Positions 5,213 to 52,801 of a stretch of DNA of 64,000 bases are shown one piece after another. The stretch's first letter is position 1; every line of letters begins with the position of its first letter. This stretch comes from an uncultured Bacilli bacterium (lineage in GTDB: Bacteria > Bacillota_I > Bacilli_A > RF39 > UBA660). The position numbers were made by a program, and so were the translations under genes. The stretch spans positions 107,558 through 171,557 of the forward strand of contig CAKORR010000001.1 of NCBI GenBank assembly GCA_934101595.1, in the 5' to 3' direction. The notes under the pieces are model-generated. The model was not told the DNA's origin. It made no database searches and saw only the letters and a list, made by a program, of their open reading frames with translations.

Positions 5213-5224
5213 GCTACACTCTCC

Positions 5225-8109: not shown

Positions 8110-8132
8110 TACAAATCTCCTTATCTTAGATA

Positions 8133-8161: not shown

Positions 8162-8194
8162 TATCTATGACAAAAATATTGCTAAATTGACACT

Positions 8195-25264: not shown

Positions 25265-25273
25265 AATACCTCC

Positions 25274-26451: not shown

Positions 26452-26460
26452 TATATCACC

Positions 26461-26796
26461 CTATCCGTTAAAGTTTGTTGGATCAACACTTAATAAGTCA
26501 TTGTATTCTTTATTAAATTCTGATTCAATAGATTTTTCATCACTAATTATTCCATTAATATCATTTGCTACATTTCCACAATAATTATCAAATTTTTCAT
26601 AAACTTGTTTAATTTTAGTCATGTTATTATCAAAAGCCTCTAAAGCTGAACCTTCAATTTGTCCGGAATTAGCAAGCATTTGCATTGCACTAGAAAATGC
26701 ATTTAATGCATTTCCACAAACTCTTTGAGCTGTTTGCATACTTTTTAAAATATCGTTTAACTGATTTGTGTTAACTTGAGTATAACTATTATTCAT
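26461..26796 (-). CDS. stand-alone short LXG-like domain protein (truncated effector N-terminus?)
   Basis: 111 aa, MNNSYTQVNTNQLNDILKSMQ...NSGQIEGSALEAF.... Homologous to the N-termini of the 24362 and 25274 proteins. Ends ...SVDPTNFNG, right at the linker where the paralogs continue into cargo domains. Confidence 0.5.
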   Translation of the reverse strand: MNNSYTQVNTNQLNDILKSMQTAQRVCGNALNAFSSAMQMLANSGQIEGSALEAFDNNMTKIKQVYEKFDNYCGNVANDINGIISDEKSIESEFNKEYNDLLSVDPTNFNG

Positions 26797-27164: not shown

Positions 27165-27191
27165 AATGTTTACACTATGCATGTAAACATT
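27165..27191. repeat. perfect 10-bp inverted repeat AATGTTTACA-N7-TGTAAACATT just upstream of the operon-1 -35 box
   Basis: Read directly from the sequence. It has no following U-run on the minus strand, so it is not a classical terminator. It overlaps the stop codon of the 27190-28587 gene. Candidate operator. Confidence 0.5.
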
Positions 27192-28587
27192 AATACTTCG
27201 ATAAAATAGTTCTAAAAGTCTTATCTCCTCTTGGTAAAGCATCAGTAATTCCATGATCAAACAATCCTGAATACCCGCCACCTCTAAATGATCCACCTCG
27301 TTTAATCCATGGAAAACTTGAGGTAGCAAAATAAGATAAGTTACCATACCAAGATTGATATTCAGTAGTATTTGCTTTAGTTTCAAAAGTAGCATCACCC
27401 AAATATCCACGGGTATGATCGAGCATTGCTCCATTATTGTACAATGTATAATACCTCGTTTCTTTAGGAAGTGAACCATTATATCCACCAATATTATCTG
27501 GAAGATTAGGACCACTAATAAGTCCCATTACACACTCCCAAGAACCACCTACCAAATCGTAAATACCATAGATATTACCTGTTGAAGAAGCACCTGTACC
27601 ATAAATTGAAACATCATATTGGTATCTACAATTTGCACTACCTCCAGTTGACACGGTACCAGCTGAACAACCAGTTAATTGATTATCCCAATTATCACTT
27701 CCCATGGCATTATTGATATAAACTCTTTTTACTTTAAAATCATTATTACCAGGTTTTCCATAATTGCTATAAGTAAAATAAGCAATAGCTCCCCATTCCA
27801 TATTTGTTATTATACGTGATGGAGTATCCAGTCCATAACTATCTTTAATCCCTGTTGCGTATTTCCACATAGTAGCCATATTAATGCTTGCTATAGGCTT
27901 TTTATTAGGAACAAGTCTTACTAAATTATTTTCAAGACTTGGTTCAAATTTAGCAATCCAAAAGCCATCTAATTCATAAGTATCTCCGCTTTTATATTGA
28001 GCGGTAAATGCTGGATGTGTATAGTATTCTCCATTTTTTATGGTAGTTTTCTTCGGCGTTGTTTTAGATACTATATTAATTTCAATAATTTGCTCTTTAA
28101 CAAGCTTTTTATCTACATTAAATAATTTGTACTCAAAACGCGGAATCCATACAAAAAAGCCTAAAATTTCATCTAAATTTATTATTTCACCAGGAAGAGC
28201 ATTAGAATATTTTTCGCGATACTCTTCTTTAGCTATTACTACATTAGCCCACCATTCTTTAGAATAATCGTACCATTTTTCTAAAGGATCAGCTTTTTTC
28301 CACGTTTTCTCTTCGAAATCATAATAAACCGGAATCATTGTATTATCAACTAATGGATCACTACCGTTAAGTGTCGGATCACTATACATAGATACAACTG
28401 GTTCATGATTTGGCTTCGCCTTTTCTTTTTCAAAAACATCAACACTTTTATACATAATATGTACATTTGGAAAGAATAATAAACCAAGCGAAATTAGAAT
28501 AAAAAATAAACTTAAATAGGTGATTTTTAACCATACATTTTTACCACTCATGCTTAACACCTTACTATCATTACTATGGTAACACAT
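27190..28587 (-). CDS. membrane-anchored protein with SUMF1/FGE-like (formylglycine-generating-enzyme family) C-terminal domain
   Basis: 465 aa with an N-terminal TM helix. C-terminal region has NMEWGAIAYF, VGGSWECV and WIKRGGSFRGG, reminiscent of FGE-sulfatase (DUF323) RGGSW motifs. Assignment is tentative. Confidence 0.4.
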   Translation of the reverse strand: MCYHSNDSKVLSMSGKNVWLKITYLSLFFILISLGLLFFPNVHIMYKSVDVFEKEKAKPNHEPVVSMYSDPTLNGSDPLVDNTMIPVYYDFEEKTWKKADPLEKWYDYSKEWWANVVIAKEEYREKYSNALPGEIINLDEILGFFVWIPRFEYKLFNVDKKLVKEQIIEINIVSKTTPKKTTIKNGEYYTHPAFTAQYKSGDTYELDGFWIAKFEPSLENNLVRLVPNKKPIASINMATMWKYATGIKDSYGLDTPSRIITNMEWGAIAYFTYSNYGKPGNNDFKVKRVYINNAMGSDNWDNQLTGCSAGTVSTGGSANCRYQYDVSIYGTGASSTGNIYGIYDLVGGSWECVMGLISGPNLPDNIGGYNGSLPKETRYYTLYNNGAMLDHTRGYLGDATFETKANTTEYQSWYGNLSYFATSSFPWIKRGGSFRGGGYSGLFDHGITDALPRGDKTFRTILSKY

Positions 28588-29514: not shown

Positions 29515-31494
29515 CTATTTTAAACTTACTGGCTTTGAGTAAGTTGTTTTACCATAAATATCATCTATTTTGAATATACAAATATAATCATCACTTTTAT
29601 CTAACGATACAAATTCAAAATTATCTTTTTTGCTAGTTTCAAATTCATATCCATAAATAGTTTTATAGCTTTTCCAGTCTTTTGTGAAATTACCATTTTC
29701 ATCAAATATTTTATACCAATATGTTAAAAATTCAAAATGAGTATAATCAGAAATATTTAATACTGATTTATTCGGTAATTCATTTAAATCTTCACGTCCC
29801 CTGGTAACAACATTGGTAATTGATGGTACTCCATTTAAATCTTTAAAGTAATAGTATACAGTTTTAATATCCCATATATTGTTATCTTTTAAAGTTTCTT
29901 TATTAAAGTTTGATATGGTACCAATTGCTCTATAGCCATCTTTTTTAGTATTAACAACCTGTAAATAAGCATTATCTATTTTATTCCCGTCGTTATCACT
30001 AACCTCTTTTATTTTAATTATCTTATTAGTAATATTCGTCTTCAATACCAAATCATCAGTTAATTCACTATCATCAGATGAATAAACGAAGTTATAATAT
30101 TCATCATTCATTTTTTTAAATATCATATATGAACTATTTGCGTATTCCCGTGCTTCATCTTGAGTAAGCTGCAAACTAAATTCATTATTATTTATCTTTG
30201 GATTAGATGAAGCCATACTTTCAACTGTTAGGGCTTTACTACTATTACCACTTTTATAATTATAAAAAGCATTTATAAATGATAAATAATCTTTTCCTTC
30301 ACTAAATAATTTATAAATATCCATAGTATATAGCTGAGCCTTATCTACTCCTTTAAAAGGAAAATATAAAGATAAACCCTTTAAATTATCATCACTTGAA
30401 TAATTATATAAAATTGCTTCATTTAAAGCTTTTAATACATCATCAGATTTAACTTTAGATTCACTACCTAACTTCTCAAAGAAATTATAAGCATCTACTG
30501 TATCATATTCAGGGGCATCCTCACCAAACTGATAGACGCTTTGTCTTACTTTTGAAATTGTTCCATAATTATCTTTTATATTTAACTTTTTGACATATTT
30601 ACTTATCTCATTAAATACATTATCGATCTTTTCTAAATCTATTATTGAATATGTCGTAACCCATTGTCCGTATGGATCTAATTTTTCCACATAATCTATA
30701 TATGATTTTATAAAACTTTTGCCTAAATCAAGGGCACTTTGATTTCTATTTATTCCATTTATGAAATCATAATATCCATACAACCCACCATAAATTATTT
30801 CTTCACTTGCTACTAAGTAATCGGCATAAGGACTAAAGGTTAGTGCAACCTCAGCTGTTTGCATCAAACAAGCCGTAAACATTAGTAATTCAAGCTTATT
30901 ATCACCATTAAATGGACTACTATTAAATGCAGTTTGGAATTCCTCCAAAGTAACAATATCATTTTTGAAATAGTCATCAGTAACTGCGCCTTGCAAGGCT
31001 CCACCATGGTCATAGATTATTAAATCATATTTATCGGTTTTAGAATAATCATAAGAATAATTCAAAAATGAGCTTAAAGTATTACCATCACCCATACTTG
31101 TTATTTTATAAGATTCTAGCTTTGTGAAACCATCTTCAGTTAACTTGTAAATAGCATTCTCATCATTTCTTATGAAATTGTGCCATTTGCTAGTTCCACC
31201 AGTATATAATAATACAGTTACGTCATCTAAGTTTACTTCCTTTGGATAAATAGTATTTAAATCCAAGGTAACAGATTTTGCATCTCGTTCTAAATTGGTT
31301 CCCGAAATATATATCATTAAGGTTCTCGTGCCACCAACATTGTTATCTTTTTTCTTATTATTAAAAGATAACAAGCCTAAAAGAATAAGCAAAATAAAAA
31401 GCAATACTATAATAATTATGTAATACTTCTTCTTACTATTATTAACATCTTCTTTATTCACAATAATCACCCTACAATAAAATTTTAACAGCAA
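29515..31494 (-). CDS. membrane-anchored clostripain-family (C11) cysteine peptidase
   Basis: 659 aa with an N-terminal TM. The His motif YDLIIYDHGGALQG and Cys motif LLMFTACLMQTAEVA match the C11 catalytic dyad context (…HG… / …DAC[LM]M…). Confidence 0.6.
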   Translation of the reverse strand: MLLKFYCRVIIVNKEDVNNSKKKYYIIIIVLLFILLILLGLLSFNNKKKDNNVGGTRTLMIYISGTNLERDAKSVTLDLNTIYPKEVNLDDVTVLLYTGGTSKWHNFIRNDENAIYKLTEDGFTKLESYKITSMGDGNTLSSFLNYSYDYSKTDKYDLIIYDHGGALQGAVTDDYFKNDIVTLEEFQTAFNSSPFNGDNKLELLMFTACLMQTAEVALTFSPYADYLVASEEIIYGGLYGYYDFINGINRNQSALDLGKSFIKSYIDYVEKLDPYGQWVTTYSIIDLEKIDNVFNEISKYVKKLNIKDNYGTISKVRQSVYQFGEDAPEYDTVDAYNFFEKLGSESKVKSDDVLKALNEAILYNYSSDDNLKGLSLYFPFKGVDKAQLYTMDIYKLFSEGKDYLSFINAFYNYKSGNSSKALTVESMASSNPKINNNEFSLQLTQDEAREYANSSYMIFKKMNDEYYNFVYSSDDSELTDDLVLKTNITNKIIKIKEVSDNDGNKIDNAYLQVVNTKKDGYRAIGTISNFNKETLKDNNIWDIKTVYYYFKDLNGVPSITNVVTRGREDLNELPNKSVLNISDYTHFEFLTYWYKIFDENGNFTKDWKSYKTIYGYEFETSKKDNFEFVSLDKSDDYICIFKIDDIYGKTTYSKPVSLK

Positions 31495-31545: not shown

Positions 31546-32517
31546 TTAGTCACTCTCTCCTTCTTTCAACATTGATGTAATAAATATTCCATATCCACTT
31601 TTCGGTTCATCTACCACAACATGAGTTACAGCTCCTATTATTTTATCATTTTGAATTATTGGGGAACCACTCATTCCCTGTACTACTCCTCCTGTTTTTT
31701 TAAGTAATTCATTATCTGTTATTATAAATGAAATATTCTTTGTCTTAGATGTTTCATTTATACTAGTTATCTCTATATCATATGATTTAATCTCTTCATT
31801 TTCTAGAACCGTTAAAATACTAGCCTTACCAACTACGATTTCGTCTTTAGAAGCAACTGGTAAAGCTTTGGTGCTAGGAAGAGGATCATTATAAATTCCA
31901 TATATACCCTTATTAGTATTTTTTGTTATAGTACCATATGTCATATTCTTATAAAATTTAGCATTTTTACTTCCGGGATGTCCAGACATACTTTTAGTGA
32001 TTGAGGTAATAGTATTTTTAAAAATATTACCTGTTTTTATTTCTACAATTTTATTATGGCTTGATTCCACTATTTCATGGCCTAAGGCTCCATATATATG
32101 AGTTTCAGGATCTATATAACTAAGAGTACCAATTCCAGTTATTTTGTCTTTAACATATAAACCTGTTTTATATATATTATTTTCATATATTAAATTTAAT
32201 TTAGTAGTTAATAGTTTATCATCACGTTTATAAGTTATTGTTATACTATCTTTATCATTATTTTCAATTTCGTTAGTTAATTCTAAAATGGAAGAAACAT
32301 CCTTATCATTTACTTTTTTAATATAATCTCCTACTTTTAAATTGCTTTTATTTAGTTTACCATTTATTTCATAAAATCCTATCACCATTATTCCATCACT
32401 GTTTATTTCAATACCGAGGGTGTTACCTCCTGGAATAATATATTTAGAATATGCTAAAACTTCAAATGGAAACATGAAGCACATTAAAAACAACAATATT
32501 TTTTTCAAAATAATCAC
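31546..32517 (-). CDS. spoIVB: stage IV sporulation protein B (SpoIVB S55 peptidase)
   Basis: 323 aa: signal, PDZ domain, then catalytic YGALGHEI and GMSGSPIIQNDKIIGAVTHV. Confidence 0.85.
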   Translation of the reverse strand: MIILKKILLFLMCFMFPFEVLAYSKYIIPGGNTLGIEINSDGIMVIGFYEINGKLNKSNLKVGDYIKKVNDKDVSSILELTNEIENNDKDSITITYKRDDKLLTTKLNLIYENNIYKTGLYVKDKITGIGTLSYIDPETHIYGALGHEIVESSHNKIVEIKTGNIFKNTITSITKSMSGHPGSKNAKFYKNMTYGTITKNTNKGIYGIYNDPLPSTKALPVASKDEIVVGKASILTVLENEEIKSYDIEITSINETSKTKNISFIITDNELLKKTGGVVQGMSGSPIIQNDKIIGAVTHVVVDEPKSGYGIFITSMLKEGESD

Positions 32518-34559: not shown

Positions 34560-36086
34560 TTAACTAATATTTAAATCTGCAAATGTATTTGTCGAATAAT
34601 ATCCAAATTTAACGTTATTTTGATTTAAACTTGTATTACCTTCGAAAGGTTTATACTTAGTAGAACTAAGTGTTATTGTTTTATTAATTGTTAAACTATT
34701 TAATTTATTATTTTTAAATGCCGATGAATCAATGGTTACTTCGGAGTTTATCTCTAACTCTGTTATGTTATTACTAGAAAAAGCGTTGTCGCCAATTTCT
34801 TTAAGAGTTGTCGGTAAATAAACATTTGTTAATCCACAATTGGAAAACATTTGCTGTGCTATTTTTTCTAGCCCTTCAGGTAATTCCAATTTAGATATTT
34901 TAATCCCAGGAAAGTATTCATAATCTCCTAAATTCAATTGTTTTAATTTACTTAAATCCACAAGATTGTAAAAACAATCTGTTCTATCTGAGTCATACAT
35001 GCAACTTGCAGAGTTATATAAACCAATTATATAATCTGTACCCATTACTACTTCGGTAGGATTATTTCCAGAATAGTCTGTGCCGCTTTTTAAATACATA
35101 AACTTTATACCATTGTATACGCTGCTGCCATCGTCATTTGTATAGTCGTCGCCAATGCCAATCATTGAATTTGGAATACTAAACAAATCTTTGCTTACTT
35201 CATCAGATAATTCACTATATCTTATAATGCTTTTCGTTTCATAACCACTTTCGCTCGCATCAAATTGATTTACTGCAGCACTTAACGTATTATAATTAGC
35301 TTCGTCAAGAATTACATAAACGTCTTTTGATTCATTTGTGTCTTGATAATATAAAACATTTCCCTTTTGAAAAGCCGGGTTAATCATATTTTTTGGCGTT
35401 ATTCCTTTAATTGTTTCGGGAACTATTATATTTTCACCACATTTATAATTGTTATAGTAACCCAAAAGTCCATTTGATCCTATCAAGAAACAATCTTCGC
35501 TACTTTCTTTTATCCCCTTTTGTGTTTGGCTTGCTACTACTACTACTTTACTATCAAACACCTTATTTTGTTCGGTCATTGGTGTATTTTCATCCATCCA
35601 CATTTTTATACTATGAGTTTTGCTTTTATCCTTTTCACTTGTTCCTAATACTCCAACATATAGTTCTTTATCAAATCTTGCATTTGCCTCTTTTTTGACA
35701 TTTACTGTTTCATATTTAGTAAGAGCTCTTCCCACTTTATTATCTAGAGCTATTTTTATATTACTTTCATCTATATAATTTGTATTTGTGCTATTTGTTA
35801 ATGCCTCTAAATTTACAGAATATGATATTTCATTATTACAATTATTTGTTACGGTAAATTGATATCCGCTTCCTTTTATTCCTTCGCTATCTGGTGTTGG
35901 AAATGTATTATTTAGGGCTATTCCATCTCCATTATCACTAAAGTTTATATCCAAACATGACGAAGTTAATGTATTTACTCCACTTTGACTTTTTGTTACT
36001 TGCCATAACGCATATGTTCCTGCTACTACTAGCGTTATTAATAACATTACTATTATGCTTGTTAAAATTATCTTCCTCTTATTCAT
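34560..36086 (-). CDS. exported surface protein, paralog 2 (TasA-like signal + LRR), driven by a poly-G-containing promoter
   Basis: 508 aa. Residues 5-225 are identical to paralog 1, then a mosaic divergent middle and a similar LRR C-terminus. RBS GAAGGTAGG. Confidence 0.6.
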   Translation of the reverse strand: MNKRKIILTSIIVMLLITLVVAGTYALWQVTKSQSGVNTLTSSCLDINFSDNGDGIALNNTFPTPDSEGIKGSGYQFTVTNNCNNEISYSVNLEALTNSTNTNYIDESNIKIALDNKVGRALTKYETVNVKKEANARFDKELYVGVLGTSEKDKSKTHSIKMWMDENTPMTEQNKVFDSKVVVVASQTQKGIKESSEDCFLIGSNGLLGYYNNYKCGENIIVPETIKGITPKNMINPAFQKGNVLYYQDTNESKDVYVILDEANYNTLSAAVNQFDASESGYETKSIIRYSELSDEVSKDLFSIPNSMIGIGDDYTNDDGSSVYNGIKFMYLKSGTDYSGNNPTEVVMGTDYIIGLYNSASCMYDSDRTDCFYNLVDLSKLKQLNLGDYEYFPGIKISKLELPEGLEKIAQQMFSNCGLTNVYLPTTLKEIGDNAFSSNNITELEINSEVTIDSSAFKNNKLNSLTINKTITLSSTKYKPFEGNTSLNQNNVKFGYYSTNTFADLNIS

Positions 36087-36106
36087 AACTACCTACCTTC
36101 TATTTA

Positions 36107-36137
36107 ACTATACCCCCCCCCCCGCGTATTTTGTCAA
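36107..36137 (-). promoter_or_regulatory. promoter with an 11-nt G homopolymer inside the -35/-10 spacer (putative phase-variation switch)
   Basis: Minus-strand reading is TTGACA (reverse complement of 36132-36137), AAATACGC, G×11 (plus-strand C run 36113-36123), then TATAGT (reverse complement of 36107-36112). Spacer is 19 nt. ATG lies 21 nt further downstream. Confidence 0.6.
36113..36123. repeat. homopolymeric C11 (G11 on the coding strand) tract
   Basis: Counted directly: C at 36113-36123. An 11-nt G/C run in a genome of very low GC. Confidence 0.9.
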
Positions 36138-36164
36138 GCAAAAAAACACGATATATTCGTGTTT
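36138..36164 (-). terminator. intrinsic terminator downstream of the 36177-36548 gene, abutting the -35 box
   Basis: Minus-strand hairpin AAACACG-AATATAT-CGTGTTT followed by TTTTTT, then GCTTGACA. Confidence 0.55.
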
Positions 36165-36176
36165 ACATATGCAAAT

Positions 36177-36548
36177 CTAATTATTATGAGCACTATCATT
36201 ATTTAGTGCCATTGATTCAATCTTAATACTATCACTAGCATTTTCAATGTCTTTTGAAACTTCTGTATCAGTACCTTGTTCAGCTTCTACAGTGTCGTTA
36301 ATAAACTTTGTCATATCGGCAAGTTCGTTTTGTAATGTTTCAATAATAGATTGTGATCCACTATTACAAAAGCTATTAAAATCTTCAAAAAATCTTTCGC
36401 TTTTTGGTCCGATCCATGATTTGTTTTCTTCAAGATTTTTAAAGTCTTTTAAAATGGTTTCAATATTTACGATAGTTGAATTCATATAGTCTTTTAACTT
36501 TGATGATATATTTAAAACTTCATCTGTATTTATATATTTTTCTTGCAT
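36177..36548 (-). CDS. WXG100-like small helical protein (W-I-G-P-K-S subtype)
   Basis: 123 aa with a central ...ENKSWIGPKSERFFEDF. Homologous to the 40493-40810 protein (YWLGPKSAIFAEKI). Acidic C-terminal tail. Confidence 0.6.
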   Translation of the reverse strand: MQEKYINTDEVLNISSKLKDYMNSTIVNIETILKDFKNLEENKSWIGPKSERFFEDFNSFCNSGSQSIIETLQNELADMTKFINDTVEAEQGTDTEVSKDIENASDSIKIESMALNNDSAHNN

Positions 36549-36555
36549 AATTCAC

Positions 36556-36825
36556 CTACCTATAAATATCTATTTGTTGATACTCTTTAATATATCTTGA
36601 AAGTTTTTCATTATAATTTTTTAATCCATTAACTACTTTTCTTAGATATACAAGGGTTTCTCCATTTATGTGCCTATCGAATGCTCTTTGATATTTACTA
36701 CTCCAAGCTGTGGTATTACCTGTTAAGTTTTGAATTAATGGAATATTTTCTTGCACTCTTTGGATTAATGTAGCGATATCTTGACAAGCATCAGAAACAT
36801 CTTGATATTTAATTTTTGTATTCAT
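36556..36825 (-). CDS. small helical WXG100-like partner protein (degenerate W-S-S)
   Basis: 89 aa, ...TAWSSKYQRAFDRHINGETLVYLRKVV... Homologous to the 40823-41095 protein (GEWKGKYQEEYDNHINGKTEKYLRKLV). Confidence 0.5.
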   Translation of the reverse strand: MNTKIKYQDVSDACQDIATLIQRVQENIPLIQNLTGNTTAWSSKYQRAFDRHINGETLVYLRKVVNGLKNYNEKLSRYIKEYQQIDIYR

Positions 36826-36840
36826 AATAATCTCCCTTTT

Positions 36841-38511
36841 TTATGAAGCTTTATTTGCTTTCGCATAAATGTTGCCTGTATTTATATAAGAACCTTTTTC
36901 TAATCTTGTATCAACCCCTTGTTTCTTTTGATAATAATTGGCAATCTCATCAGCACTTTTACCTGCTAACTCTTCTTCAGTAAAGTCTGTTTTAGCATAT
37001 TCCAAATGCAAATGGGTTCCAGATGATCGGCCTGTACTTCCCATTATACCAATTGGACTATCGTCTGTTATAACATCGCCGGCTTTAACTTTAGGAGTCT
37101 CTCTTAAGTGGGCATATCTACTCATATAATACGATATAGTTCCATCATCATTTATTACCTCGTGAAGCATAACAACTTCATTACCATAGCCATAATTTGA
37201 ATGTCCTGAATAGACTACAACTCCCTCTTGGATAGGTTTTATAGAAACATTTTCTCGTGATCCCTCAGGAACATAATCACAGCCCCTATGGTCAAAATAA
37301 CCATTACCAGTGCCGTCTTCACTCCATCTCGAATCTATGTATGAACTAATTCTATATGCGTTATTTAATGGCAAATTTATATCTGTTTTTTCAAAAGAAG
37401 AGGCTTCAACGCTCCAACTTGATTTTGAAAGTTTTTCGTAAGAAGCTAATTTATTTATAACTAATGGCTCTATTTCTTCTTTCTCGGCATCAATATAAGT
37501 TTTAGTTACATTTCCTAAATCATTAGAAGCACCTTTTACAGTTGAAGCTAAACCAGGGATTATTATAACTTGGCCAACTTCTATTTGATTTGGGTTAGAA
37601 ATAGTATCTCTATTTGCTTCATATATTTCTTCCCAATCAACACCATACTTTTCAGCAATTTTACTTAATGAGTCACCGCTTGCAATAGTGTATTTCAAAG
37701 GCTCTGTTTTTTTCTCTCCTTCTACTTCCTCATTTAAAGTTTCATCTGCTAAATCTATTAAAACAACGTCTTCATTATTCTCATATTTTGTAATATTATC
37801 AATATGATTTTTACTTTTAACTATAACATCTGTAGCAGCACTTTTTATTTTCTCGATATTTTTTATGATAACACTTCTAAAAGTGCCAATTGGTTCTCTT
37901 ATTATTTTCGCTTTACCATTATACTTTGATATAACTTCCAAAGTACGATTATCATATGTTGAATTACCTAAAGCAGTAATTGTATTTTCACATATTGTAA
38001 TAAGATTTTCGAATAAAGTCGTAACGTTTTCTGCAAAATCTGTTTGGATGCCGAAAACTTCATTTCTTATCATGCCCTGAACTGCAGGTATATTCCAATA
38101 AATTTTAAATTCTTCTCGTAAAATACCAATTCTACGTTGAGTATCAATAAGTTTATTTTTAGCCCTATAATATTCTTGCATATAATGTTCCCATACGGAT
38201 GTCGAAGCCGTACCATCATTTACATGTTCTTTCATAACGGCACAATTATCAAGAGCATCCATAAATTGCTGAAGATCTATTTTTTCTTCTTCAACAAGTA
38301 TAACCATTTCATCTAATTTATTTATTTGATTGATTACATTATTAACAGATGGATATCCAACACTATTAACCATATCTCTTAACTTTTGGCCAACTTGAAA
38401 AGCAACAAACCCCACCCAAGGATCGCTTTCGCTATCACCAAAAAGAGAATTCGGAGCAATTCTTCGAGAAGTTAAAATCCAATTTTGTAAATCAGTTGTA
38501 TTTATGGCCAT
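36841..38511 (-). CDS. LXG/WXG-like N-terminal domain + LysM + M23 (LytM-type) metalloendopeptidase (candidate effector I)
   Basis: 556 aa with no signal peptide. N-terminus has SLFGDSESDPWVGFVAF (L-x-G and W-x-G). LysM at YTIASGDSLSKIAEKYGVDWEEIYEANRD...GQVIIIPG. M23 motifs FDHRGCD (HxxxD) and GTHLHLEY (HxH) are intact. Confidence 0.65.
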   Translation of the reverse strand: MAINTTDLQNWILTSRRIAPNSLFGDSESDPWVGFVAFQVGQKLRDMVNSVGYPSVNNVINQINKLDEMVILVEEEKIDLQQFMDALDNCAVMKEHVNDGTASTSVWEHYMQEYYRAKNKLIDTQRRIGILREEFKIYWNIPAVQGMIRNEVFGIQTDFAENVTTLFENLITICENTITALGNSTYDNRTLEVISKYNGKAKIIREPIGTFRSVIIKNIEKIKSAATDVIVKSKNHIDNITKYENNEDVVLIDLADETLNEEVEGEKKTEPLKYTIASGDSLSKIAEKYGVDWEEIYEANRDTISNPNQIEVGQVIIIPGLASTVKGASNDLGNVTKTYIDAEKEEIEPLVINKLASYEKLSKSSWSVEASSFEKTDINLPLNNAYRISSYIDSRWSEDGTGNGYFDHRGCDYVPEGSRENVSIKPIQEGVVVYSGHSNYGYGNEVVMLHEVINDDGTISYYMSRYAHLRETPKVKAGDVITDDSPIGIMGSTGRSSGTHLHLEYAKTDFTEEELAGKSADEIANYYQKKQGVDTRLEKGSYINTGNIYAKANKAS

Positions 38512-38595
38512 ATTACCACGTCTCTTTCCCTATTCTTTATCATGTTAATTATAATATTATTCTCACATTAAATCAATTATAAAATTAAATACATT

Positions 38596-38623
38596 AAAAT
38601 AAAAATTACAGGGCACCCTGTAA
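38596..38623 (-). terminator. GC-rich intrinsic terminator between the LysM-SLT and LysM-M23 genes
   Basis: Minus-strand hairpin TTACAGGG-TG-CCCTGTAA (plus 38606-38623) followed by TTTTTATTTT. A TTGATT-17nt-TATAAT promoter candidate follows at about 38540-38575. Confidence 0.55.
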
Positions 38624-38627
38624 TCTT

Positions 38628-40484
38628 CTACATTATATCTCGTAACATTTCCGTATACTTCTTATTTAAACGATTAGCTAGATCTTGTTTAGTTATTACT
38701 CCATCGCCATCCACGTCTAAACCCCTATTATAAGAATAATAGCTTTCGCCTTTGACACATAAAGTATTTTTCTTGGCTCTACCTGGTAAGAACATAACCG
38801 CATATAATGTACCAGCATCTAATTCTTCGCCATTTTTGTAAGGACTAGCGCTTTTAATATATTTTTCAACTAAATCAAGTTGATCTGTTGCGGACATATT
38901 GGCTATCTGTTCAGTCGTGTAACCAAGATTACGAGCAGTGCTTGGCATAAATTGGATAAGGCCAACAGCTCTACTACTGCTTTCAATATGAGATGGATCA
39001 AGAGCACATTCTGAATACATAAGAGCAAGTAAATCATTTGGATCACAATTAACATTTTTAGCGACTTGTTCTAGTTTAGCACTAAATCCTGGCTCGAATC
39101 TGTCATCCAAACAACTTGCTAAAGCACTATCTAATACTTCTACTTTAGGAGAGCTAGTATTAGTACTTGTCTGAGCCGCGGATACTCCTTTTTCATTTGC
39201 TCTTTTATGGGCAGCTTCATTTCTATCTTTAGTTGCTTGTTCTCTTTCACTAATTTCCTTAGTATCACTTTCTTTAGATACAGCTTCTTTAACTTCTGTT
39301 TTTTCTTTAACCTCAGATTTTTTATCATCCTTACCAGATTCTGTTTCGTCAGTCTTTTTAGTTGCCACACTAACAGAACCAATGGCTGCAGCACCAATTA
39401 CGCCTTCAAATACTGGAGGGTTAATATCAAATGCTTCCTCTTCTTTTTCCTCAAACTTAAGACCTGTATATTTGCTAATAACATCTGCGGCACTTACAGG
39501 ATCATTACTTTCTTCTTTTTGACCTGGAATTGTAAGCACTTGTCCAGGATATATCAAGTTTGGATTATCGATCTTATCAGCGTTTGCTTCATAAAGCTCT
39601 TTCCAGTCAATTCCATATTTCGCTGCAATTTTAATTAAATAGTCACCTTTTTCAACAACATATGTTCCGTGATTAGAAGATGTACTATCACTACTAGTCC
39701 TTTTTCTTTCTTTAGCATATTCAAAGTCATTACGATATTCAAATTGTTTAATCTTGGCAAAATGATATTTTAACAAATTTAATTGGCGAGTTGCTTCATC
39801 AAGACATTTTTTAATATTAACTTTTATATTATTACACGCTGAATAGAAAAAACCACTAACTTGATAATCACTAGAAGATAAATCGTCATTGCCACTTGGA
39901 ATTTGAAAATCACTTGACCTCATGGAATTCATATTCAACATTTGCATATTTAAATATTTTACTATATTATTTAAGGGCTCAATGACTTGCTTCTCAAAAG
40001 TTGCTAAGTTTATCTCATATTTATCTGAATTATAGTTTTCCCATGGAGTAACCTCTATTTCCACAATTGGAGTTAAAACAGAAACTATTTCTTCTTTCTT
40101 TTTGATGATTTTCTTTTTTAATTCTTTAAGTGTCGAAGATATTATAATCTTTTGTTGAGCCAACATATAAACGTCCGCATGATCTTTATATGCAATTTCT
40201 TCATCTATAGTTTTGCACGCTTTGTATTTACTTTCATAAGATAACTTTAGGGCAAGTAAACCATCGGTTGGATTCATTACTAAATCAACCGCTTTGCTAT
40301 AATCTTTTAGCTGGTACATAATGCCTTCATTTTGGATATAGCTCAACATTCTATCAATAATATAGCATCTCCGCTTTAATTCAGCTGCTCTTTTTCCGTA
40401 AAACATCAAAGTTGCCGGATTAAATCTTTTAGATATCTGATATGCAAGAAAAATATTATTTGTATCTATTTTTACTTTAACCAT
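38628..40484 (-). CDS. LXG-like N-terminal domain + LysM + family-1 lytic transglycosylase (SLT) (candidate effector H)
   Basis: 618 aa with no signal peptide. N-terminus has ...LMFYGKRAAELKRRCYII (compare F-x-G-K-x-A-x-x-I-K of LXG domains). LysM at YVVEKGDYLIKIAAKYGIDWKELYEANAD...GQVLTIPG, then a K/E-rich low-complexity linker. The C-terminal SLT domain is about 70% identical to that of 25274-26167 (MYSECALDP...AVGLIQFMPSTARNLGY). Confidence 0.65.
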   Translation of the reverse strand: MVKVKIDTNNIFLAYQISKRFNPATLMFYGKRAAELKRRCYIIDRMLSYIQNEGIMYQLKDYSKAVDLVMNPTDGLLALKLSYESKYKACKTIDEEIAYKDHADVYMLAQQKIIISSTLKELKKKIIKKKEEIVSVLTPIVEIEVTPWENYNSDKYEINLATFEKQVIEPLNNIVKYLNMQMLNMNSMRSSDFQIPSGNDDLSSSDYQVSGFFYSACNNIKVNIKKCLDEATRQLNLLKYHFAKIKQFEYRNDFEYAKERKRTSSDSTSSNHGTYVVEKGDYLIKIAAKYGIDWKELYEANADKIDNPNLIYPGQVLTIPGQKEESNDPVSAADVISKYTGLKFEEKEEEAFDINPPVFEGVIGAAAIGSVSVATKKTDETESGKDDKKSEVKEKTEVKEAVSKESDTKEISEREQATKDRNEAAHKRANEKGVSAAQTSTNTSSPKVEVLDSALASCLDDRFEPGFSAKLEQVAKNVNCDPNDLLALMYSECALDPSHIESSSRAVGLIQFMPSTARNLGYTTEQIANMSATDQLDLVEKYIKSASPYKNGEELDAGTLYAVMFLPGRAKKNTLCVKGESYYSYNRGLDVDGDGVITKQDLANRLNKKYTEMLRDIM

Positions 40485-40492
40485 ACCTTCAC

Positions 40493-40810
40493 CTACTTTA
40501 CTGATTGTCCAATTGCGTCATCAGTTTCTTCAACTTGACCGCAGGCGTCTTTTATAAATTTTATTAATCCATCGAAATCACTTTCAACATTATCTAAAAT
40601 TGCTCCAGAGTTTTCATTTTTAGCAAAAAATTGAGCTATTTTCTCTGCAAAAATAGCAGATTTTGGACCAAGCCAATAATCGCTGGTTATTTTTTCATAT
40701 GATTGCTTTATAACATTAATATCAGTTAAAATTTCATTTTTCTTAGCGTTTAAAACATCTGCTTTGGCTAATAGTCTATCATAATCGACCATTTGGGTAT
40801 TATCGTTCAT
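40493..40810 (-). CDS. WXG100-like small helical protein (W-L-G-P-K-S subtype)
   Basis: 105 aa with a central SDYWLGPKSAIFAEKIAQFF. Confidence 0.6.
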   Translation of the reverse strand: MNDNTQMVDYDRLLAKADVLNAKKNEILTDINVIKQSYEKITSDYWLGPKSAIFAEKIAQFFAKNENSGAILDNVESDFDGLIKFIKDACGQVEETDDAIGQSVK

Positions 40811-40822
40811 TTCTTCACCTAC

Positions 40823-41095
40823 TTATTGATCTATTTTTTGGTAACCTTGCATAGTTTTTTCTAAATAATTATTAAAATCTTCAAAACAGGTTACCAATTT
40901 TCTTAAATATTTTTCTGTTTTACCATTAATATGATTGTCATATTCCTCTTGATATTTGCCTTTCCATTCACCATTAGAAATGGCATCGTTTAACATAGAA
41001 TCAATACTAAGTTGTAGTTGTGAAATATATCTTTTAATAAGATTAATTTCATTTCTAATTTCAGTATAATGAACAGAAACCTTCTCATTATTCAT
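40823..41095 (-). CDS. small helical WXG100-like partner protein (W-K-G)
   Basis: The track ORF extends to 41197, but the likely start is ATG at 41093-41095 (MNNEKVSVHYTEIRNE...), preceded by AAGGTG. 90 aa with a central GEWKGKYQEEY. The 5' extension would overlap the mutS terminator. Confidence 0.5.
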   Translation of the reverse strand: MNNEKVSVHYTEIRNEINLIKRYISQLQLSIDSMLNDAISNGEWKGKYQEEYDNHINGKTEKYLRKLVTCFEDFNNYLEKTMQGYQKIDQ

Positions 41096-41182
41096 TCTAT
41101 CACACACCTTACTATAATAATAATAGCATATTATTATTCGATTTTTTAATTTATACTTACATTTAATGTAAATAATATGTAT

Positions 41183-41209
41183 ATAAAAAAGAAACATTTT
41201 TAATGTTTC
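41183..41209 (-). terminator. intrinsic terminator overlapping the mutS stop codon
   Basis: Minus-strand hairpin GAAACAT-TAAAA-ATGTTTC followed by TTTTTT. Confidence 0.5.
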
Positions 41210-48253: not shown

Positions 48254-48356
48254 AATCTTGCCTCCTCAAGTTATTGGTTTTTATTATAAGTACTAAATCT
48301 TGTTTTGTAAACATAATTAGACATTTTTTGACACAAAAAAAGAAGCGATTGCTTCT

Positions 48357-50030
48357 TTATAATTCATATTTAACTACAGCATCACCGCTCCAGTTACTTC
48401 CTAAAGTCATTCCTGTTGCATCAGCTCTTTTTATAGTAATTGTTGATGCATTAGTTAGGCCATTAAATGCTCTATCATCTATTTTGGTTACACTATTTGG
48501 AATAATGACATTTGTAATTGTTGACTGAGCAAACGCGGCGTTATAAATTTCCGTATATCCTTGGGCAATTTCTAATTTATTAATTTTCATGTTTGTGAAT
48601 GCGCCATTAGCAACTGTTTCATTAGTATTAATATGGCCTAAAATATCATGACCAGTTACATACGTAAATGTTAAATTATTAATGGTTGACCCTTCAAAAT
48701 ATCCTATTGCACTATACTCATTTACAGGGTTAAATATTAATGATCCATAAAGTTCTAGAGTATCAATATTACTATAGGCAAATGCTCCAACACCAATTTT
48801 TATATCACTAGTATTAACTCCAAAATTTAGACTTGTTAGTCCAACTCTTTGAGTTTGTGTTGTATCAAGTTCATATGATGTTTTTCCATCACTTGTCGTC
48901 TCTTTATACATAACATTTGAAAATGCAAATTTTTCTATTTCTTCTAGTTTAGTGGCTTTTGAGAAATTAACACCTTTTATTACTAAAGAAGCACTAACTT
49001 TTGGCGTTTGGCTTACCGTCATTTCACCGTCTTCACTTTCAGGTAAAATATAATATAATCCTTCTTCTCCAGCCGTTGCCGTTTCGGGTACATCAGATTC
49101 TTTAGTTACATAAGTAATAGTTGCTGTTTGATCCTCTTCTGTTAAACCATTTAGTAATGCTTCTATACGTGATCTATTTGATTCATTTTTTACAAGAATA
49201 TAATATTTCATTCCTATGTAAACATCGTTAGTAGAGTCATATGTTGCATTTGATGAATCATTCCACATCATAAAATCAGTTAAGTCCTTTTCTTGTCTAA
49301 ATGCACTTGTTGCTATTTTCTTAACATCTTTTTTATTAACACTTTCAGGAATAACTACATTTTCTCCACATGAAGTATCATATGCGGTAATCACTCCATT
49401 AGAATCTATTGTAAAGCAGTTTTCTGGAGTAGCAACTAAACCTTCATTGTCATTTTTAATTCCTTGTCCACCCGTTATAAATATTTTTCCATTAAATTGT
49501 TTTCCTTGTTCAGTAATAGGTGCATTTTCATCAATCCATATTTTTAGCAAATGAGTCTTAGTGGCATTACCACCTATAGATGCGGTTTTTAATTCTTTTG
49601 ATGATCTATAAGTATCAGGGCCTTCGATATCATTTAAACTACCATATGTTCCTAAAACCTCATTATCTATAGATAGTGCAACAGCACTATCTGACATATA
49701 TCCCGTATTTGCATCCCCATCTACTGATTCCAAACCTATAATATAATTTACGGCATTACTACAATTATTAGTTACCGTAAAAGTGTATCCAGTTAAATCA
49801 TTTTGAGCATTAGCACTAGTCATTGGCCAGCTATTTTCTAAACTGATGGGTGTGCCTTCGCCTACTTTATTAAGATCTAAATCTAGACATGCCGCGATCA
49901 TGCTATTTTTATCTTTTTGAGTTTTAGTTACTTGCCATAAGGCATAAGTCGAAGCAACTATTATTAAAAGAACTAAGCAGATTCCAATAGACATACCAAT
50001 AATTTTATTACGTCTAACACTATTTTCCAT
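48357..50030 (-). CDS. exported surface protein, paralog 3 (TasA-like signal + LRR)
   Basis: 557 aa. N-terminus ...LLIIVASTYALWQVTKTQKDKNS. Shared core CFTIDSNGVITAYDTSCGENVVIPESV. LRR-like C-terminus. Upstream TTGACT-18nt-TATTAT promoter candidate has no homopolymer. Confidence 0.6.
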   Translation of the reverse strand: MENSVRRNKIIGMSIGICLVLLIIVASTYALWQVTKTQKDKNSMIAACLDLDLNKVGEGTPISLENSWPMTSANAQNDLTGYTFTVTNNCSNAVNYIIGLESVDGDANTGYMSDSAVALSIDNEVLGTYGSLNDIEGPDTYRSSKELKTASIGGNATKTHLLKIWIDENAPITEQGKQFNGKIFITGGQGIKNDNEGLVATPENCFTIDSNGVITAYDTSCGENVVIPESVNKKDVKKIATSAFRQEKDLTDFMMWNDSSNATYDSTNDVYIGMKYYILVKNESNRSRIEALLNGLTEEDQTATITYVTKESDVPETATAGEEGLYYILPESEDGEMTVSQTPKVSASLVIKGVNFSKATKLEEIEKFAFSNVMYKETTSDGKTSYELDTTQTQRVGLTSLNFGVNTSDIKIGVGAFAYSNIDTLELYGSLIFNPVNEYSAIGYFEGSTINNLTFTYVTGHDILGHINTNETVANGAFTNMKINKLEIAQGYTEIYNAAFAQSTITNVIIPNSVTKIDDRAFNGLTNASTITIKRADATGMTLGSNWSGDAVVKYEL

Positions 50031-50130
50031 ATATTAACCTACTTTCTATGTTAATAATACAATTAACTCTTTTGGATAGTCAATATAAATTAAATAAATA
50101 AACATTTTTTTACATAAAAAAAGCCCTATA

Positions 50131-51951
50131 TTAAGGCTCAAATTTAATTGTTGCATTGCTACTCCAATTTTCACCTAAAGTCATGCCATCTAGATTTGCT
50201 CTTTTCATAATTATTGTGTCTTTTTCTATAGCACCAGCAAATGCCTTTTCGCCAATAATCTTAACATTTTTAGGCACGACTATAGAAGTTAATAAAAAGT
50301 CGTTTTCACTATCTTCATCACTAAAAACAAATTGATATCCGCCAATTTCGATTAATGATTCTGGCAAATTTACATTTTTTATAAATACGCTTTGAAATGA
50401 TTGTTCACTTATTTTAGTAATGCCTTCGCTTATATTAACAGTTGTAACATAGGATAGAAAAAATTGGCCGCTTAAAACCGATCCGATTACTCCGCCAACA
50501 GTTGTATCATCAACAGTTTTATCTTTATAGTCAATCACAGTATTATCCTTAGATGGTTTAATTGTTAGATTATTAATTGAACTCATACCAAATGTTTGTG
50601 AATTGTATCCTTTTTCTATAGTGCCTGTAAGCGAATTATAAACTGTTAATTTATCAAGTTTGCTAAACAAAAAAGCCCCCGTACCTATTTTTATGGCATT
50701 ATCATTAGCCCCAAAATTAATATAAGTTAATCCAAAATCTAAAGAATTATCAAAATTATCTTTACCATTAGCAGTTGCCTTATCATAATTTGCTGAAATT
50801 TTATCAAGACCAGCTTCGGTCGTACCATCATAAAGGGTAAATGCATATGGTTCTATTTCTTCTAAGTAAATTGCTTTTGAAAAATCTACTCCTTTAATAG
50901 TAAATATATTGTCCTTATAAGGAGTTTGAGCTAATAAAAATTCATCCTCGCCATTCTCATCCTTGGCAATAATGCCATACTTACCTTCTTCTGTTTCACT
51001 CGCTGTTGTTGGAAGTTCTGATTCGTTATTTATGAAAAAGTTATTTGAGGCTTCTTCTTCAGATACTTTTTTAAAAAACTCTTCTATTCTACTCTTGGCT
51101 TTGTCATTTTTAACTATTATATAATACTTTATTCCTGTAGTCTTATCTTCTTTTTCATCATACACCGAAGAACTTAAATCTTCCCAAAGCAAAAAATCTG
51201 TAACATCTTTTTCTGGTCTAAATGCGTTAGTAGCGATCTTTTTTACTTTGACATTGTTAACGCTTGCAGGTATTACAACCATTTCTCCACAAGAATCATC
51301 ATATTTAGAAATAATTCCATTAGAATCTATTGTAAAACATTTTTCCGGAGTTGCTAATAACCCTGGATTATCATTTAAAATTCCTTGACCACCAGTTATA
51401 AATATTTTTCCATTAAAGGCTTTTCCCTGTTCCGTAATAGGAGCTCTTTCATCAATCCATATTTTTAATAAATGCGTATTGGTTTCTTTTCCCTTGATTT
51501 CAGCAGTTTTTATTTCTTTTGATAAAATATATGTATCAGGGCCTTCGATATCATTTAAGCTATTAAATGTTCCTAACACATCGTCATCAATTGCTAATGC
51601 AACTGCTGATGCACTTAAACTTGCTAGCCTTTCATCTTCTAATGATTCAAGTCCTATTACATAACTTATTGGCGTATCACAATTATTAGTTACGGTAAAT
51701 GTATATCCTGTTAATTCTTTTACGGCATCAACCGCATTCATAGGCCAACTATTTTCAAGGTTAATAACACTACCTTCACCAGTTTTGTTAAGATCAAGAT
51801 CTAGGCATGCCGCAATCATACTATTTTTATCTTTTTGCGTTTTAGTTACTTGCCATAAGGCATAAGTCGAAGCAATTATAATTAGAAGTACCAGAGCAAT
51901 TCCTATAGATACCCCTATAATTTTGTTATGTTTATTATTTTCACTTTTCAT
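50131..51951 (-). CDS. exported surface protein, paralog 4 (TasA-like signal + LRR), driven by a poly-G-containing promoter
   Basis: 606 aa. N-terminus ...LLIIIASTYALWQVTKTQKDKNS. In tandem with paralog 3. RBS TAGGATGG. Confidence 0.6.
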   Translation of the reverse strand: MKSENNKHNKIIGVSIGIALVLLIIIASTYALWQVTKTQKDKNSMIAACLDLDLNKTGEGSVINLENSWPMNAVDAVKELTGYTFTVTNNCDTPISYVIGLESLEDERLASLSASAVALAIDDDVLGTFNSLNDIEGPDTYILSKEIKTAEIKGKETNTHLLKIWIDERAPITEQGKAFNGKIFITGGQGILNDNPGLLATPEKCFTIDSNGIISKYDDSCGEMVVIPASVNNVKVKKIATNAFRPEKDVTDFLLWEDLSSSVYDEKEDKTTGIKYYIIVKNDKAKSRIEEFFKKVSEEEASNNFFINNESELPTTASETEEGKYGIIAKDENGEDEFLLAQTPYKDNIFTIKGVDFSKAIYLEEIEPYAFTLYDGTTEAGLDKISANYDKATANGKDNFDNSLDFGLTYINFGANDNAIKIGTGAFLFSKLDKLTVYNSLTGTIEKGYNSQTFGMSSINNLTIKPSKDNTVIDYKDKTVDDTTVGGVIGSVLSGQFFLSYVTTVNISEGITKISEQSFQSVFIKNVNLPESLIEIGGYQFVFSDEDSENDFLLTSIVVPKNVKIIGEKAFAGAIEKDTIIMKRANLDGMTLGENWSSNATIKFEP

Positions 51952-51973
51952 ATTTTACTACCATCCTATTTTA

Positions 51974-52003
51974 ACTATACCCCCCCCCGGAGCATTTTGT
52001 CAA
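51974..52003 (-). promoter_or_regulatory. promoter with a 9-nt G homopolymer inside the -35/-10 spacer (putative phase-variation switch)
   Basis: Minus-strand reading is TTGACA (reverse complement of 51998-52003), AAATGCTCC, G×9 (plus-strand C run 51980-51988), then TATAGT (reverse complement of 51974-51979). Spacer is 18 nt. The flanks are conserved with the 36107-36137 cassette. Confidence 0.6.
51980..51988. repeat. homopolymeric C9 (G9 on the coding strand) tract
   Basis: Counted directly: C at 51980-51988. Confidence 0.9.
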
Positions 52004-52034
52004 ATAAAAAAACATATGCTTTTAACATATGTTT
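52004..52034 (-). terminator. intrinsic terminator downstream of the TPM-domain gene, abutting the -35 box
   Basis: Minus-strand hairpin AAACATATG-TTAAAAG-CATATGTTT followed by TTTTTTATT, then TGACA. Confidence 0.55.
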
Positions 52035-52048
52035 ACATAAGAAAAATT

Positions 52049-52801
52049 TTAAAAACCACGTGAACTTCCGCCACCACCGGAAGAGCCTCCACCTCCAGAG
52101 AATCCTCCAAATGATGAATGACTAGACGAAGAGTCACTATCGCCAAAGCCAAAGAATAAAGTGTTATTTCTTCTTCGACCACCAGGTTTTTGATTACGGC
52201 TTGCAATAAGGACGATTATAACGAATATAAAAATTATACCCAAGCGAAAGAACACTTCATAATCTACATTGCTTTCTTTTTCTGGACTATCTACAGAGCC
52301 ATCATAATTATAATAGTCAGCCACTTCTTTAAAAAATGCTTTATAACCATTTAACATTCCTTCATTAAAATCATTAGTTTTAAAGTAAGGAATCATATAC
52401 TCATCTTGAAATCTTCCTGTTTTACCATCTGGTAATATGCCCTCTAAACCATATCCAACTTCTACGCGCATTTTTCTTTCTTCCAAAGATAATAACAATA
52501 ATAAGCCATTATTCTCATTCTTATTACCAATCTTGAAATTACGGAATAATTGTGTAGCATATTCTTCCAAACTTGCTCCATTTAAATTTGGTACTGTTAC
52601 TACAACGATTTGAGCTGTTGTTTTACTGGCAAGTGCTACACTATGCTCTTGGATATAATTTTCAGTTTCACTATCTAGTATGTTAGCATAATCATTAACA
52701 TAATAATTTCTTGTTGGAGTAACAGTTTCAAATGCTAAAACGTGTTCTTTAGGAATACATAAAACTACTAAAAAAAGAAAAAAGAATAAAATCTTTTTCA
52801 T
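52049..52801 (-). CDS. TPM-domain (YgcG-like) protein with Gly-rich C-terminus
   Basis: 250 aa: signal peptide, TPM/phosphatase-like domain (...YANILDSETENYI...QIVVVTV...), a TM helix, then a GGGGSSGGGGSS tail. Immediately downstream of lemA, a conserved pair. Confidence 0.7.
   Translation of the reverse strand: MKKILFFFLFLVVLCIPKEHVLAFETVTPTRNYYVNDYANILDSETENYIQEHSVALASKTTAQIVVVTVPNLNGASLEEYATQLFRNFKIGNKNENNGLLLLLSLEERKMRVEVGYGLEGILPDGKTGRFQDEYMIPYFKTNDFNEGMLNGYKAFFKEVADYYNYDGSVDSPEKESNVDYEVFFRLGIIFIFVIIVLIASRNQKPGGRRRNNTLFFGFGDSDSSSSHSSFGGFSGGGGSSGGGGSSRGF

Follow-up and report, generated by a model that had tools for sequence, protein, structure and literature searches.

A large, previously unannotated family of putative modular surface proteins in uncultured gut Bacilli

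Four genes, here termed A–D, are scattered among the housekeeping genes of a 64-kb stretch of DNA from an uncultured Bacilli bacterium (contig CAKORR010000001.1; the whole stretch is hereafter called the window). In each of the encoded proteins, a common N-terminal module (N-module) that starts with a putative export signal precedes leucine-rich repeats (LRRs) of the BspA type. We propose that A–D are members of a large family of modular surface proteins that occurs in uncultured gut Bacilli and has hitherto gone unannotated, and we consider this explanation as a whole slightly better than an even bet (probability about 0.55). Directly demonstrated are the paralogy of the four genes, the size of the family, the statistics of its N-terminal motif, the LRR domains and the length polymorphism of a guanine run (G-run) in a promoter. 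Judging from their sequences, A–D are probably located at the cell surface.

Four paralogous genes encode LRR proteins with a common N terminus

A six-frame search of the whole window for the motif TYALWQVTK returned exactly four occurrences, each ~25–30 residues into a long open reading frame (ORF) on the minus strand. All features of genes A–D given below, including their promoters and terminators, lie on this strand. Gene A (6574–8109; 511 amino acids) is flanked by a gene for an FAD-dependent oxidoreductase and by ftsA, and gene B (34560–36086; 508 amino acids) lies upstream of nusB. The interval 48357–51951 contains only gene C (48357–50030; 557 amino acids) and gene D (50131–51951; 606 amino acids), with A and B found elsewhere in the window. 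The predicted signal peptides comprise residues 1–27 of A (8029–8109), 1–26 of B (36009–36086), 1–30 of C (49941–50030) and 1–31 of D (51859–51951), and the N-modules occupy approximately 7540–8109 in A, 35517–36086 in B and, extending to about residue 192, 51376–51951 in D.

The four proteins can be aligned end to end. All have a start rich in lysine and arginine, followed by 16–20 hydrophobic residues and the motif (A/G)(S/T)TYALWQVTK, and all share a further region of ~160 residues that contains the blocks CLD(I/L), G-Y-x-F-T-V-T-N-N-C and (I/V)-(S/N)-Y. Both the motif search and the alignment agree with the earlier reading of this DNA (the original prediction), according to which the four N termini consist of a basic start, a hydrophobic helix and the sequence (A)GTYALWQVTK or ASTYALWQVTK. 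C and D are 55% identical at the protein level and share 33% identity with A and B; the coding DNA of A and B is 90% identical. We conclude that A–D are true paralogs and that chance matches are ruled out.

The C-terminal regions of all four proteins match the Pfam model LRR_5 (PF13306) with E values of 4.6e-11 to 6.5e-17 (1.2e-13 for gene C; at the C terminus in D), and the bit scores of 51.5 for C, 43.1 for D, 59.5 for A and 62.1 for B all exceed the gathering score of 27.7. This bears out the earlier description of the proteins as exported paralogs with BspA-type LRRs. The translations of A–D show no recognizable sorting signal at their C termini, and the Pfam and NCBIfam models identify no anchor domain. 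Two other types of N-terminal signal were rejected: a lipoprotein signal, as the signal peptide sequences contain no conserved lipobox cysteine, and a type IV pilin-like signal, as the conserved motif comes after, not before, the hydrophobic residues.

The N-module defines a large family

Residues 1–200 of A–D match no Pfam or NCBIfam model, and an N-module profile retrieved nothing from the PDB sequences at E ≤ 10. The N-module is new to the databases. When 1.84 billion representative sequences were searched exhaustively with a profile, 3920 relatives passed E ≤ 1e-3, of which 2049 also passed E ≤ 1e-10, and almost every one of the 150 top matches has the module at its N terminus. The exhaustive search was required because word-indexed homolog searches are nearly blind to the N-module, returning one match for the N-domain and two for the N-terminal profile. 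Among species-representative genomes, matches to the family came only from metagenome-assembled genomes (MAGs) of uncultured gut 'Bacilli' or 'Tenericutes', with ~18 copies in one MAG and ~17 in another.

The C-terminal partners of the N-module vary. LRR_5 is present in 37 of 74 relatives, and DUF285, LRR_8 and FNIP domains also occur; two members are named by NCBI solely as 'leucine-rich repeat domain-containing' and 'LamG domain-containing'. Stand-alone N-modules of 174–230 amino acids are found as well (P0001, P0049, L024 and L034). In the related MAGs that contribute the last two loci, these modules are 195 and 228 amino acids long (L024, 9968–11730; L034, 9947–10633). Behind the L024 module, another family member stands in tandem, whose C-terminal domain is a different one and lacks annotation, and the L034 module adjoins genes for ComG-like pseudopilins.

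Conservation was computed over two alignments, of 146 and 74 sequences. C48, P69 and C90 are invariant in both, F84 is invariant in one and at least 90% conserved in the other, and Y29, A30, W32, Q38, N42, Y82, N88, Y96, W165 and F179 are at least 90% conserved in both. The two invariant cysteines, C48 and C90, probably form a disulfide. In thioester domains the cysteine lies far upstream of the glutamine; a thioester-domain reading of the conserved cysteine and glutamine was dropped, as Q38 stands only 10 residues before C48.

G-runs in promoter spacers vary in length

Only two runs of at least 7 G or C are present in the 64-kb window, C11 at 36113–36123 and C9 at 51980–51988 in plus-strand notation, and they correspond to a G11 run and a G9 run in the promoter spacers of genes B and D. 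The D promoter (51974–52003) consists of TTGACA, an 18-nt spacer (AAATGCTCC followed by G9) and TATAGT, and is one of the four top-scoring (11/12) promoter-like sites between 34 and 53 kb. The B promoter (36107–36137) has the same hexamers, TTGACA and TATAGT, separated by a 19-nt spacer (AAATACGC followed by G11). The promoter of A (8133–8161; TTGACT-N17-TATAAT) and the promoter-like site of C (50054–50083; TTGACT-N18-TATTAT) contain no homopolymer run. Two other assemblies have a nearly identical A promoter, with a few substitutions that all fall outside the hexamers. A terminator scan that took in C and D revealed intrinsic-terminator-like hairpins after D (50121–50139) and after C (48339–48358), the former of which indicates that D is transcribed separately from C.

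The G-run of D differs in length between populations. Over seven independent assemblies with near-identical flanks, it is G9 in four, G10 in two and G11 in one, as read from assembly consensus sequences and not from reads, which results in spacers of 18–20 nt. Two metagenome contigs from other assemblies of the D locus (L056 and L057) begin at or slightly upstream of the −35 box, at distances of 76 and 58 nt from the D start codon. Assembly breaks at mixed run lengths would be expected to leave such ends. In the closest MAG, nearly all paralogs are preceded by a terminator hairpin, TTGAC[AT], 8–10 nt, a run of G8–G11 and TATGAT, in this order; more distant MAGs mostly have no G-run at the promoter-spacer position. 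At three loci in the more distant MAGs CANPZX01 and CANORV01 (L044, L047 and L050), G10 runs coincide with the 5′ end of family ORFs or lie slightly within it, and not in a promoter spacer, which hints at translational (frameshift) phase variation in these MAGs.

The promoter cassettes of B and D are ~80% identical over 82 nt (36087–36170 versus 51952–52050), although the two proteins are only 33% identical. Between A and B (6574–8250 versus 34560–36230), the coding region is shared but the promoters are unrelated. A cassette common to B and D and coding DNA common to A and B together suggest that recombination shuffles promoters and coding regions among the paralogs.

We conclude that phase variation is well supported and is the best-supported functional feature of the family: the length polymorphism is directly observed, and switching between on and off states is its probable consequence. 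The sigma-A-type promoters also argue against a sporulation-specific role and against the spore-appendage function that the original prediction had considered. A spore appendage resembling Ena was rejected in view of the Sec signals and the same promoters.

The predicted signal peptide ends in a TasA-like cleavage region

We derived a cleavage-site logo from 189 family members, with the conserved alanine set as P1, and compared it to 110 TasA/CalY proteins. P2, P1, P1′ and P2′ served to locate the motif, so the frequencies of Tyr or Phe at P2 (99%), Ala at P1 (94%), Tyr, Leu, Phe or Trp at P1′ and Trp at P2′ (97%) are conditional, whereas that of Thr or Ser at P3 (98%) is unbiased; conservation in the alignment agrees. 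Past the site, Thr at P5′ (80%), Gln at P8′ (98%) and Asn at P12′ (98%) stand out. The residues at P5–P3 are small or polar (Gly/Ser, Ser/Gly/Thr and Thr/Ser), and the hydrophobic core itself shows no sequence conservation. With the predicted cleavage site marked by an arrow, TasA and CalY have T-W-A↓A-F, the window proteins (S/G)TYA↓LW and the family [ST]-[YF]-A↓x-W. The pattern T-aromatic-A↓x-aromatic (GGGTWA↓AF in TasA) is therefore present in register in A–D and in the family logo, and the proteins are probably cleaved after this alanine.

An aromatic residue at P2′ is absent from 143 verified LepB substrates and slows cleavage, and the P2 tryptophan and P2′ phenylalanine of TasA hinder the P-type peptidase LepB; TasA is cut by a dedicated peptidase of the endoplasmic reticulum (ER) type, SipW (PMC10269814). 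With aromatic residues at both P2 and P2′, the family site would likewise be a poor substrate for an ordinary P-type signal peptidase. By analogy with TasA, its cleavage may require a SipW-like enzyme.

The likeness to TasA extends across the site. Aligning residues 1–65 of the family with residues 1–63 of TasA using hhalign gave a probability of 65.6% and a P value of 5.8e-5. The alignment pairs GTYAxW with GGTWAAF and 'N.i.saCLdI......I.L.na.P' with 'n.FAaGTLDL......FdLsNlKP'. When the signal peptides were left out, the first 45 mature residues scored 15.6 against TasA; column-shuffled TasA controls had a mean of 7.3 (standard deviation 1.7, maximum 14.8), and none of 150 shuffles reached 15.6. 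A TasA hidden Markov model (HMM) built here matches only residues 1–65 of family members, at no more than 12 bits. Of 78 diverse N-terminal peptides of relatives, 16 match TIGR04088, the model of the SipW-cognate signal, at E ≤ 0.1 (best 1.5e-4), and 8 match the BsaA model TIGR04090. One relative reaches 18.5 bits on TIGR04088, for which the curated cutoff is 19 bits, and Peptidase_M73 (PF12389) is detected in 1 of 74 full-length relatives (E = 2.2e-4). The proposed link to TasA and SipW is thus partly supported, by similarity that is real but below threshold, and the N-module may be a distant relative of TasA.

Predicted structure and the segment after the cleavage site

AlphaFold models computed with the family alignment have predicted local distance difference test (pLDDT) scores of 84.6 for residues 1–200 and 82.4 for full-length C. 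In both models, a single helix extends from residue 2 to residues ~33–35 and runs through the motif. It leads into a conserved low-confidence segment (residues 31–47 of C, 49890–49940), where pLDDT drops below 50 at residues 36–43 in the N-domain model and at residues 35–46 in the full-length model. The segment is followed by a predicted seven- to eight-stranded β-sandwich at residues ~47–190 (48–190 in C, 49461–49889) and by a β-solenoid at residues ~200–557 with one helical and one disordered insertion, the latter domain being identified in C by both LRR_5 and AlphaFold (48360–49433). The full-length model weakly resembles the BspA-type LRR structures 4fdw, 4cp6 and 4h09. The fold of the N-module is no more similar to TasA than to dozens of unrelated β-sandwiches.

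In TasA, the donor strand comprises residues 28–38, directly after the cleavage site (PMC9674648). Residues 28–38 of Clostridium perfringens BsaA, which lack order in the monomer, enter the following subunit, where the inserted strand is locked by an isopeptide bond between N35 and K74; the newest BsaA subunit remains tethered to the membrane until SipW cuts (bioRxiv 10.1101/2024.11.04.621531). In the family, the segment equivalent to the TasA donor strand is the most conserved part of the protein and the sole part of the N-module that AlphaFold leaves unplaced. A triad of the BsaA type (N-E-K) at equivalent spacing was discarded, as the conservation lists hold no conserved lysine ~39 residues after N42.

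A model for export and switching, and its alternatives

In the reading we favor, each gene would be transcribed separately, from its own sigma-A-type promoter to its own terminator. Slipped-strand mispairing during replication would alter the spacer lengths of B and D (18, 19 or 20 nt are seen), and this is expected to toggle individual paralogs on and off, presumably by affecting transcription. The proteins would be exported by the Sec pathway by means of a signal peptide of ~26–31 residues that ends in the TasA-class site [ST]-[YF]-A↓x-W. Cleavage of this site would fall to an ER-type (SipW-like) enzyme, or would be so slow that the peptide tethers the protein to the membrane for a time. The mature protein would begin with the strongly conserved, probably flexible segment containing the nearly invariant W, T, Q and N. 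Next would come the β-sandwich as a 'base' domain with the invariant cysteine pair, and last the variable C-terminal BspA-type LRR solenoid, which would perform binding. The N-module would thereby act as a constant export and attachment handle, while the C-terminal domains and the promoter switches would provide surface variation.

Several results weigh against this reading. Using an HMM built from two real sipW genes (of B. subtilis and Gorillibacterium) together with a catalytic-motif regular expression, we found no sipW-like gene in the window and 49 family loci (661 kb). None of about 50 family genes has a sipW or tapA-like partner beside it, and no signal peptidase I is present among the Pfam-annotated genes in the ~9.5 kb past the right end of the window. 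Past residue ~65, hhalign detects no sequence similarity to TasA and leaves the remaining ~130 residues unaligned. Of the TasA- and camelysin-like patterning that had been proposed for the ~150 residues after the signal, the quoted blocks do occur in A–D and a β-sandwich is predicted, but the sequence resemblance to TasA ends early in this region. HMM searches had been suggested as a check, and LRR_5 matched all four proteins, whereas neither TIGR04088 (whole proteins) nor PF12389 has a match in A–D at E ≤ 1, and the N-terminal peptides of C and A have no TIGR04088 match even at E ≤ 10. The notion of a SipW-class signal thus draws on the logo, the hhalign result and the matches of relatives, but not on direct model matches of A–D. 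Generic models of single transmembrane (TM) anchors are more common than TIGR04088 among the 78 N-terminal peptides (FliL in 37, MapZ in 18). As for switching, homopolymer lengths from short-read assemblies can be erroneous, and no observed D spacer has the optimal length of 17 nt. The predicted phase-variable control applies to B and D, with G-runs in their spacers and a run of varying length in D, but A and C have no such switch.

The frequency of FliL and MapZ matches at the top of the N-terminal hits would also fit a permanently uncleaved signal anchor. A–D would then be type II membrane proteins in which the tyrosine and tryptophan of the motif form part of an aromatic belt and the β-sandwich serves as a membrane-proximal stalk for the LRRs. 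Many surface proteins of Mollicutes are held by a membrane anchor and a stalk, and the family is abundant in MAGs labeled Tenericutes, where membrane anchoring would be a natural solution. The AlphaFold helix, which is unbroken over residues 2–35 with the motif included, and the lack of a C-terminal sorting signal or a Pfam or NCBIfam anchor domain in A–D are in line with this idea. However, small or polar residues at P5–P3 combined with alanine at P1 in 94% of members constitute the c-region pattern of a signal peptide, which an anchor would not need. The sequence of the hydrophobic core is not conserved, and the similarity to the TasA cleavage region is in register on both sides of the site. 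A permanent anchor is therefore doubtful, though it deserves to be kept in mind.

The conserved, unplaced segment after the site invites comparison with TasA-type fibers. After SipW-type cleavage, this segment could act as a donor strand that inserts into the β-sandwich of the next subunit, as in TasA and BsaA. A fiber of N-modules would then display the LRR domains (LamG or DUF285 domains in relatives), and the last, uncleaved subunit would serve as the membrane anchor. Within the family, the segment aligned with the donor strand is the most conserved (W 97%, T 80%, Q 98%, N 98%), and its pLDDT below 50 in both models parallels the disorder of residues 28–38 in monomeric BsaA (bioRxiv 10.1101/2024.11.04.621531). 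The stand-alone N-modules of 174–230 amino acids could be plain fiber subunits. With neither a wall nor a membrane anchor at the C terminus, A–D must be retained through their N termini. Nevertheless, we consider fibers unlikely: the fold match is no better than that to dozens of unrelated β-sandwiches, sequence similarity to TasA is absent past residue ~65, the ~50 family genes have no sipW/tapA-like partner beside them, the window contains no gene for a stand-alone subunit, and a C-terminal domain of 350 residues per subunit is without precedent among TasA-type fibers. A fuller version of the proposal, which strikes us as equally unlikely, would make the N-module a new and highly diverged TasA/BsaA branch of donor-strand exchange and a universal handle for polymerization, whose interchangeable LRR, LamG and DUF285 heads, each switched by a G-run promoter of its own, co-assemble into membrane-tethered fibers. 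In that case, the composition of adhesive heads would differ from cell to cell, and Q38/N42, K177 and conserved acidic residues might lock the subunits covalently, by analogy with the N35-K74-E56 arrangement of BsaA.

It is also improbable that A–D carry ordinary Sec signal peptides that are processed by the housekeeping P-type signal peptidase I, such that the likeness to TasA is convergent or irrelevant and the residues after the site are part of the folded domain. Threonine at −3 and alanine at −1 do fit the general (−3,−1) rule, A–D miss TIGR04088, and no sipW gene lies near any family gene examined. But such processing would have to accommodate tryptophan at P2′ in 97% of members, where aromatic residues impair cleavage and do not occur in the 143 verified LepB substrates (PMC10269814), and the conserved segment after the site is not placed in the AlphaFold fold. 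A variable surface-protein family with a TasA-class export signal and G-run switches is the reading we retain.

Genomic setting

The window represents core chromosome of a spore-forming Firmicute with 28% G+C. Its genes include lspA, sigG, sigE, spoIIGA, ftsZ, ftsA, spoIVB and nusB, as well as mutS, murF, lon and ileS, which were identified by eye. The gene order ftsA-ftsZ-spoIIGA-sigE-sigG (1778–6469) and a SpoIVB match above the curated cutoff (31546–32517) indicate that this 'Bacilli' lineage either forms spores or has a spore-forming ancestor. The same surface-protein family occurs in relatives labeled Tenericutes.

Two gene groups (24362–26796 and 36177–41197) code for proteins in which an N-terminal domain, WXG100-like or helical, is joined to cell-wall hydrolase modules, and gene B lies directly downstream of one of them. 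The hydrolases contain SLT/phage-lysozyme domains (25274–26167 and 38628–40484) or LysM and Peptidase_M23 domains (36841–38511). Small WXG100-like proteins are encoded at 24362–25264 (N terminus) and 40493–40810, and probably at 26461–26796, 36177–36548 and 40823–41197. These proteins resemble substrates of type VII secretion or toxins of the LXG type. Between the two groups lie genes for a 659-amino-acid protein of the clostripain family (Peptidase_C11) with an N-terminal TM segment (29515–31494) and for a membrane-anchored protein of 465 amino acids without a Pfam match (27190–28587). Just past the right end of the window, a Sortase-domain protein of 533 amino acids is encoded (L063, 8256–9857); A–D have no LPXTG-type signal.

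Significance and comparison with known systems

With thousands of sequence clusters and up to about 18 copies per genome, the family is named in databases only by its C-terminal domains, and it apparently forms the principal repertoire of variable surface proteins in a widespread group of uncultured gut Bacilli. The constant N-module would tie it to the TasA/SipW export route, which bears on how adhesins are displayed without sortase signals in wall-bearing and wall-less relatives. The G-run promoters are evidence, at the sequence level, that this lineage uses classical phase variation, and their run lengths can be read from metagenomes. If the proteins did form fibers, these would be the first TasA-type fibers with adhesin domains.

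Like TasA, CalY and BsaA (PF12389, TIGR04088 and TIGR04090), the family occurs in a Firmicute host. Its signal peptide is about as long as theirs and has the same T-aromatic-A↓x-aromatic end, the body is a predicted β-sandwich, and the conserved segment at the N terminus has no structure in the monomer model. The profile similarity is in register from the signal peptide through the first ~35 residues of the mature protein. Unlike these proteins, A–D have no significant match to the respective models, and the family shows no similarity past residue ~65 and has no adjacent sipW or tapA. It further differs by its invariant cysteine pair, by the large C-terminal LRR, LamG or DUF285 domain of most members, and by its many dispersed paralogs per genome in place of a single operon.

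In repeat type, predicted solenoid and presumed ligand-binding role at the surface, A–D resemble BspA-type LRR proteins such as Tannerella BspA, pneumococcal PcpA (4cp6) and BACOVA_01565 (4fdw). Those proteins, however, rely on other means of export and anchoring, among them choline-binding repeats, lipoprotein signals and the type IX secretion system (T9SS), and no BspA-type protein is known to carry the N-module.

Phase variation by homopolymers in promoter spacers is familiar from the poly-A runs of the vlp genes of Mycoplasma hyorhinis and from the poly-G run of porA and the poly-C run of opc in Neisseria meningitidis. The present system is set apart by its host, a lineage of spore-forming, walled, uncultured gut Bacilli, by the use of poly-G in a genome of 28% G+C, by a promoter cassette common to paralogs that are only 33% identical in protein sequence, and by the restriction of the run to some of the paralogs. 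As in vlp, porA and opc, the runs of B and D lie between the hexamers, so that their length sets the spacer, the genes belong to a variable surface multigene family, and the run of D differs in length between populations.

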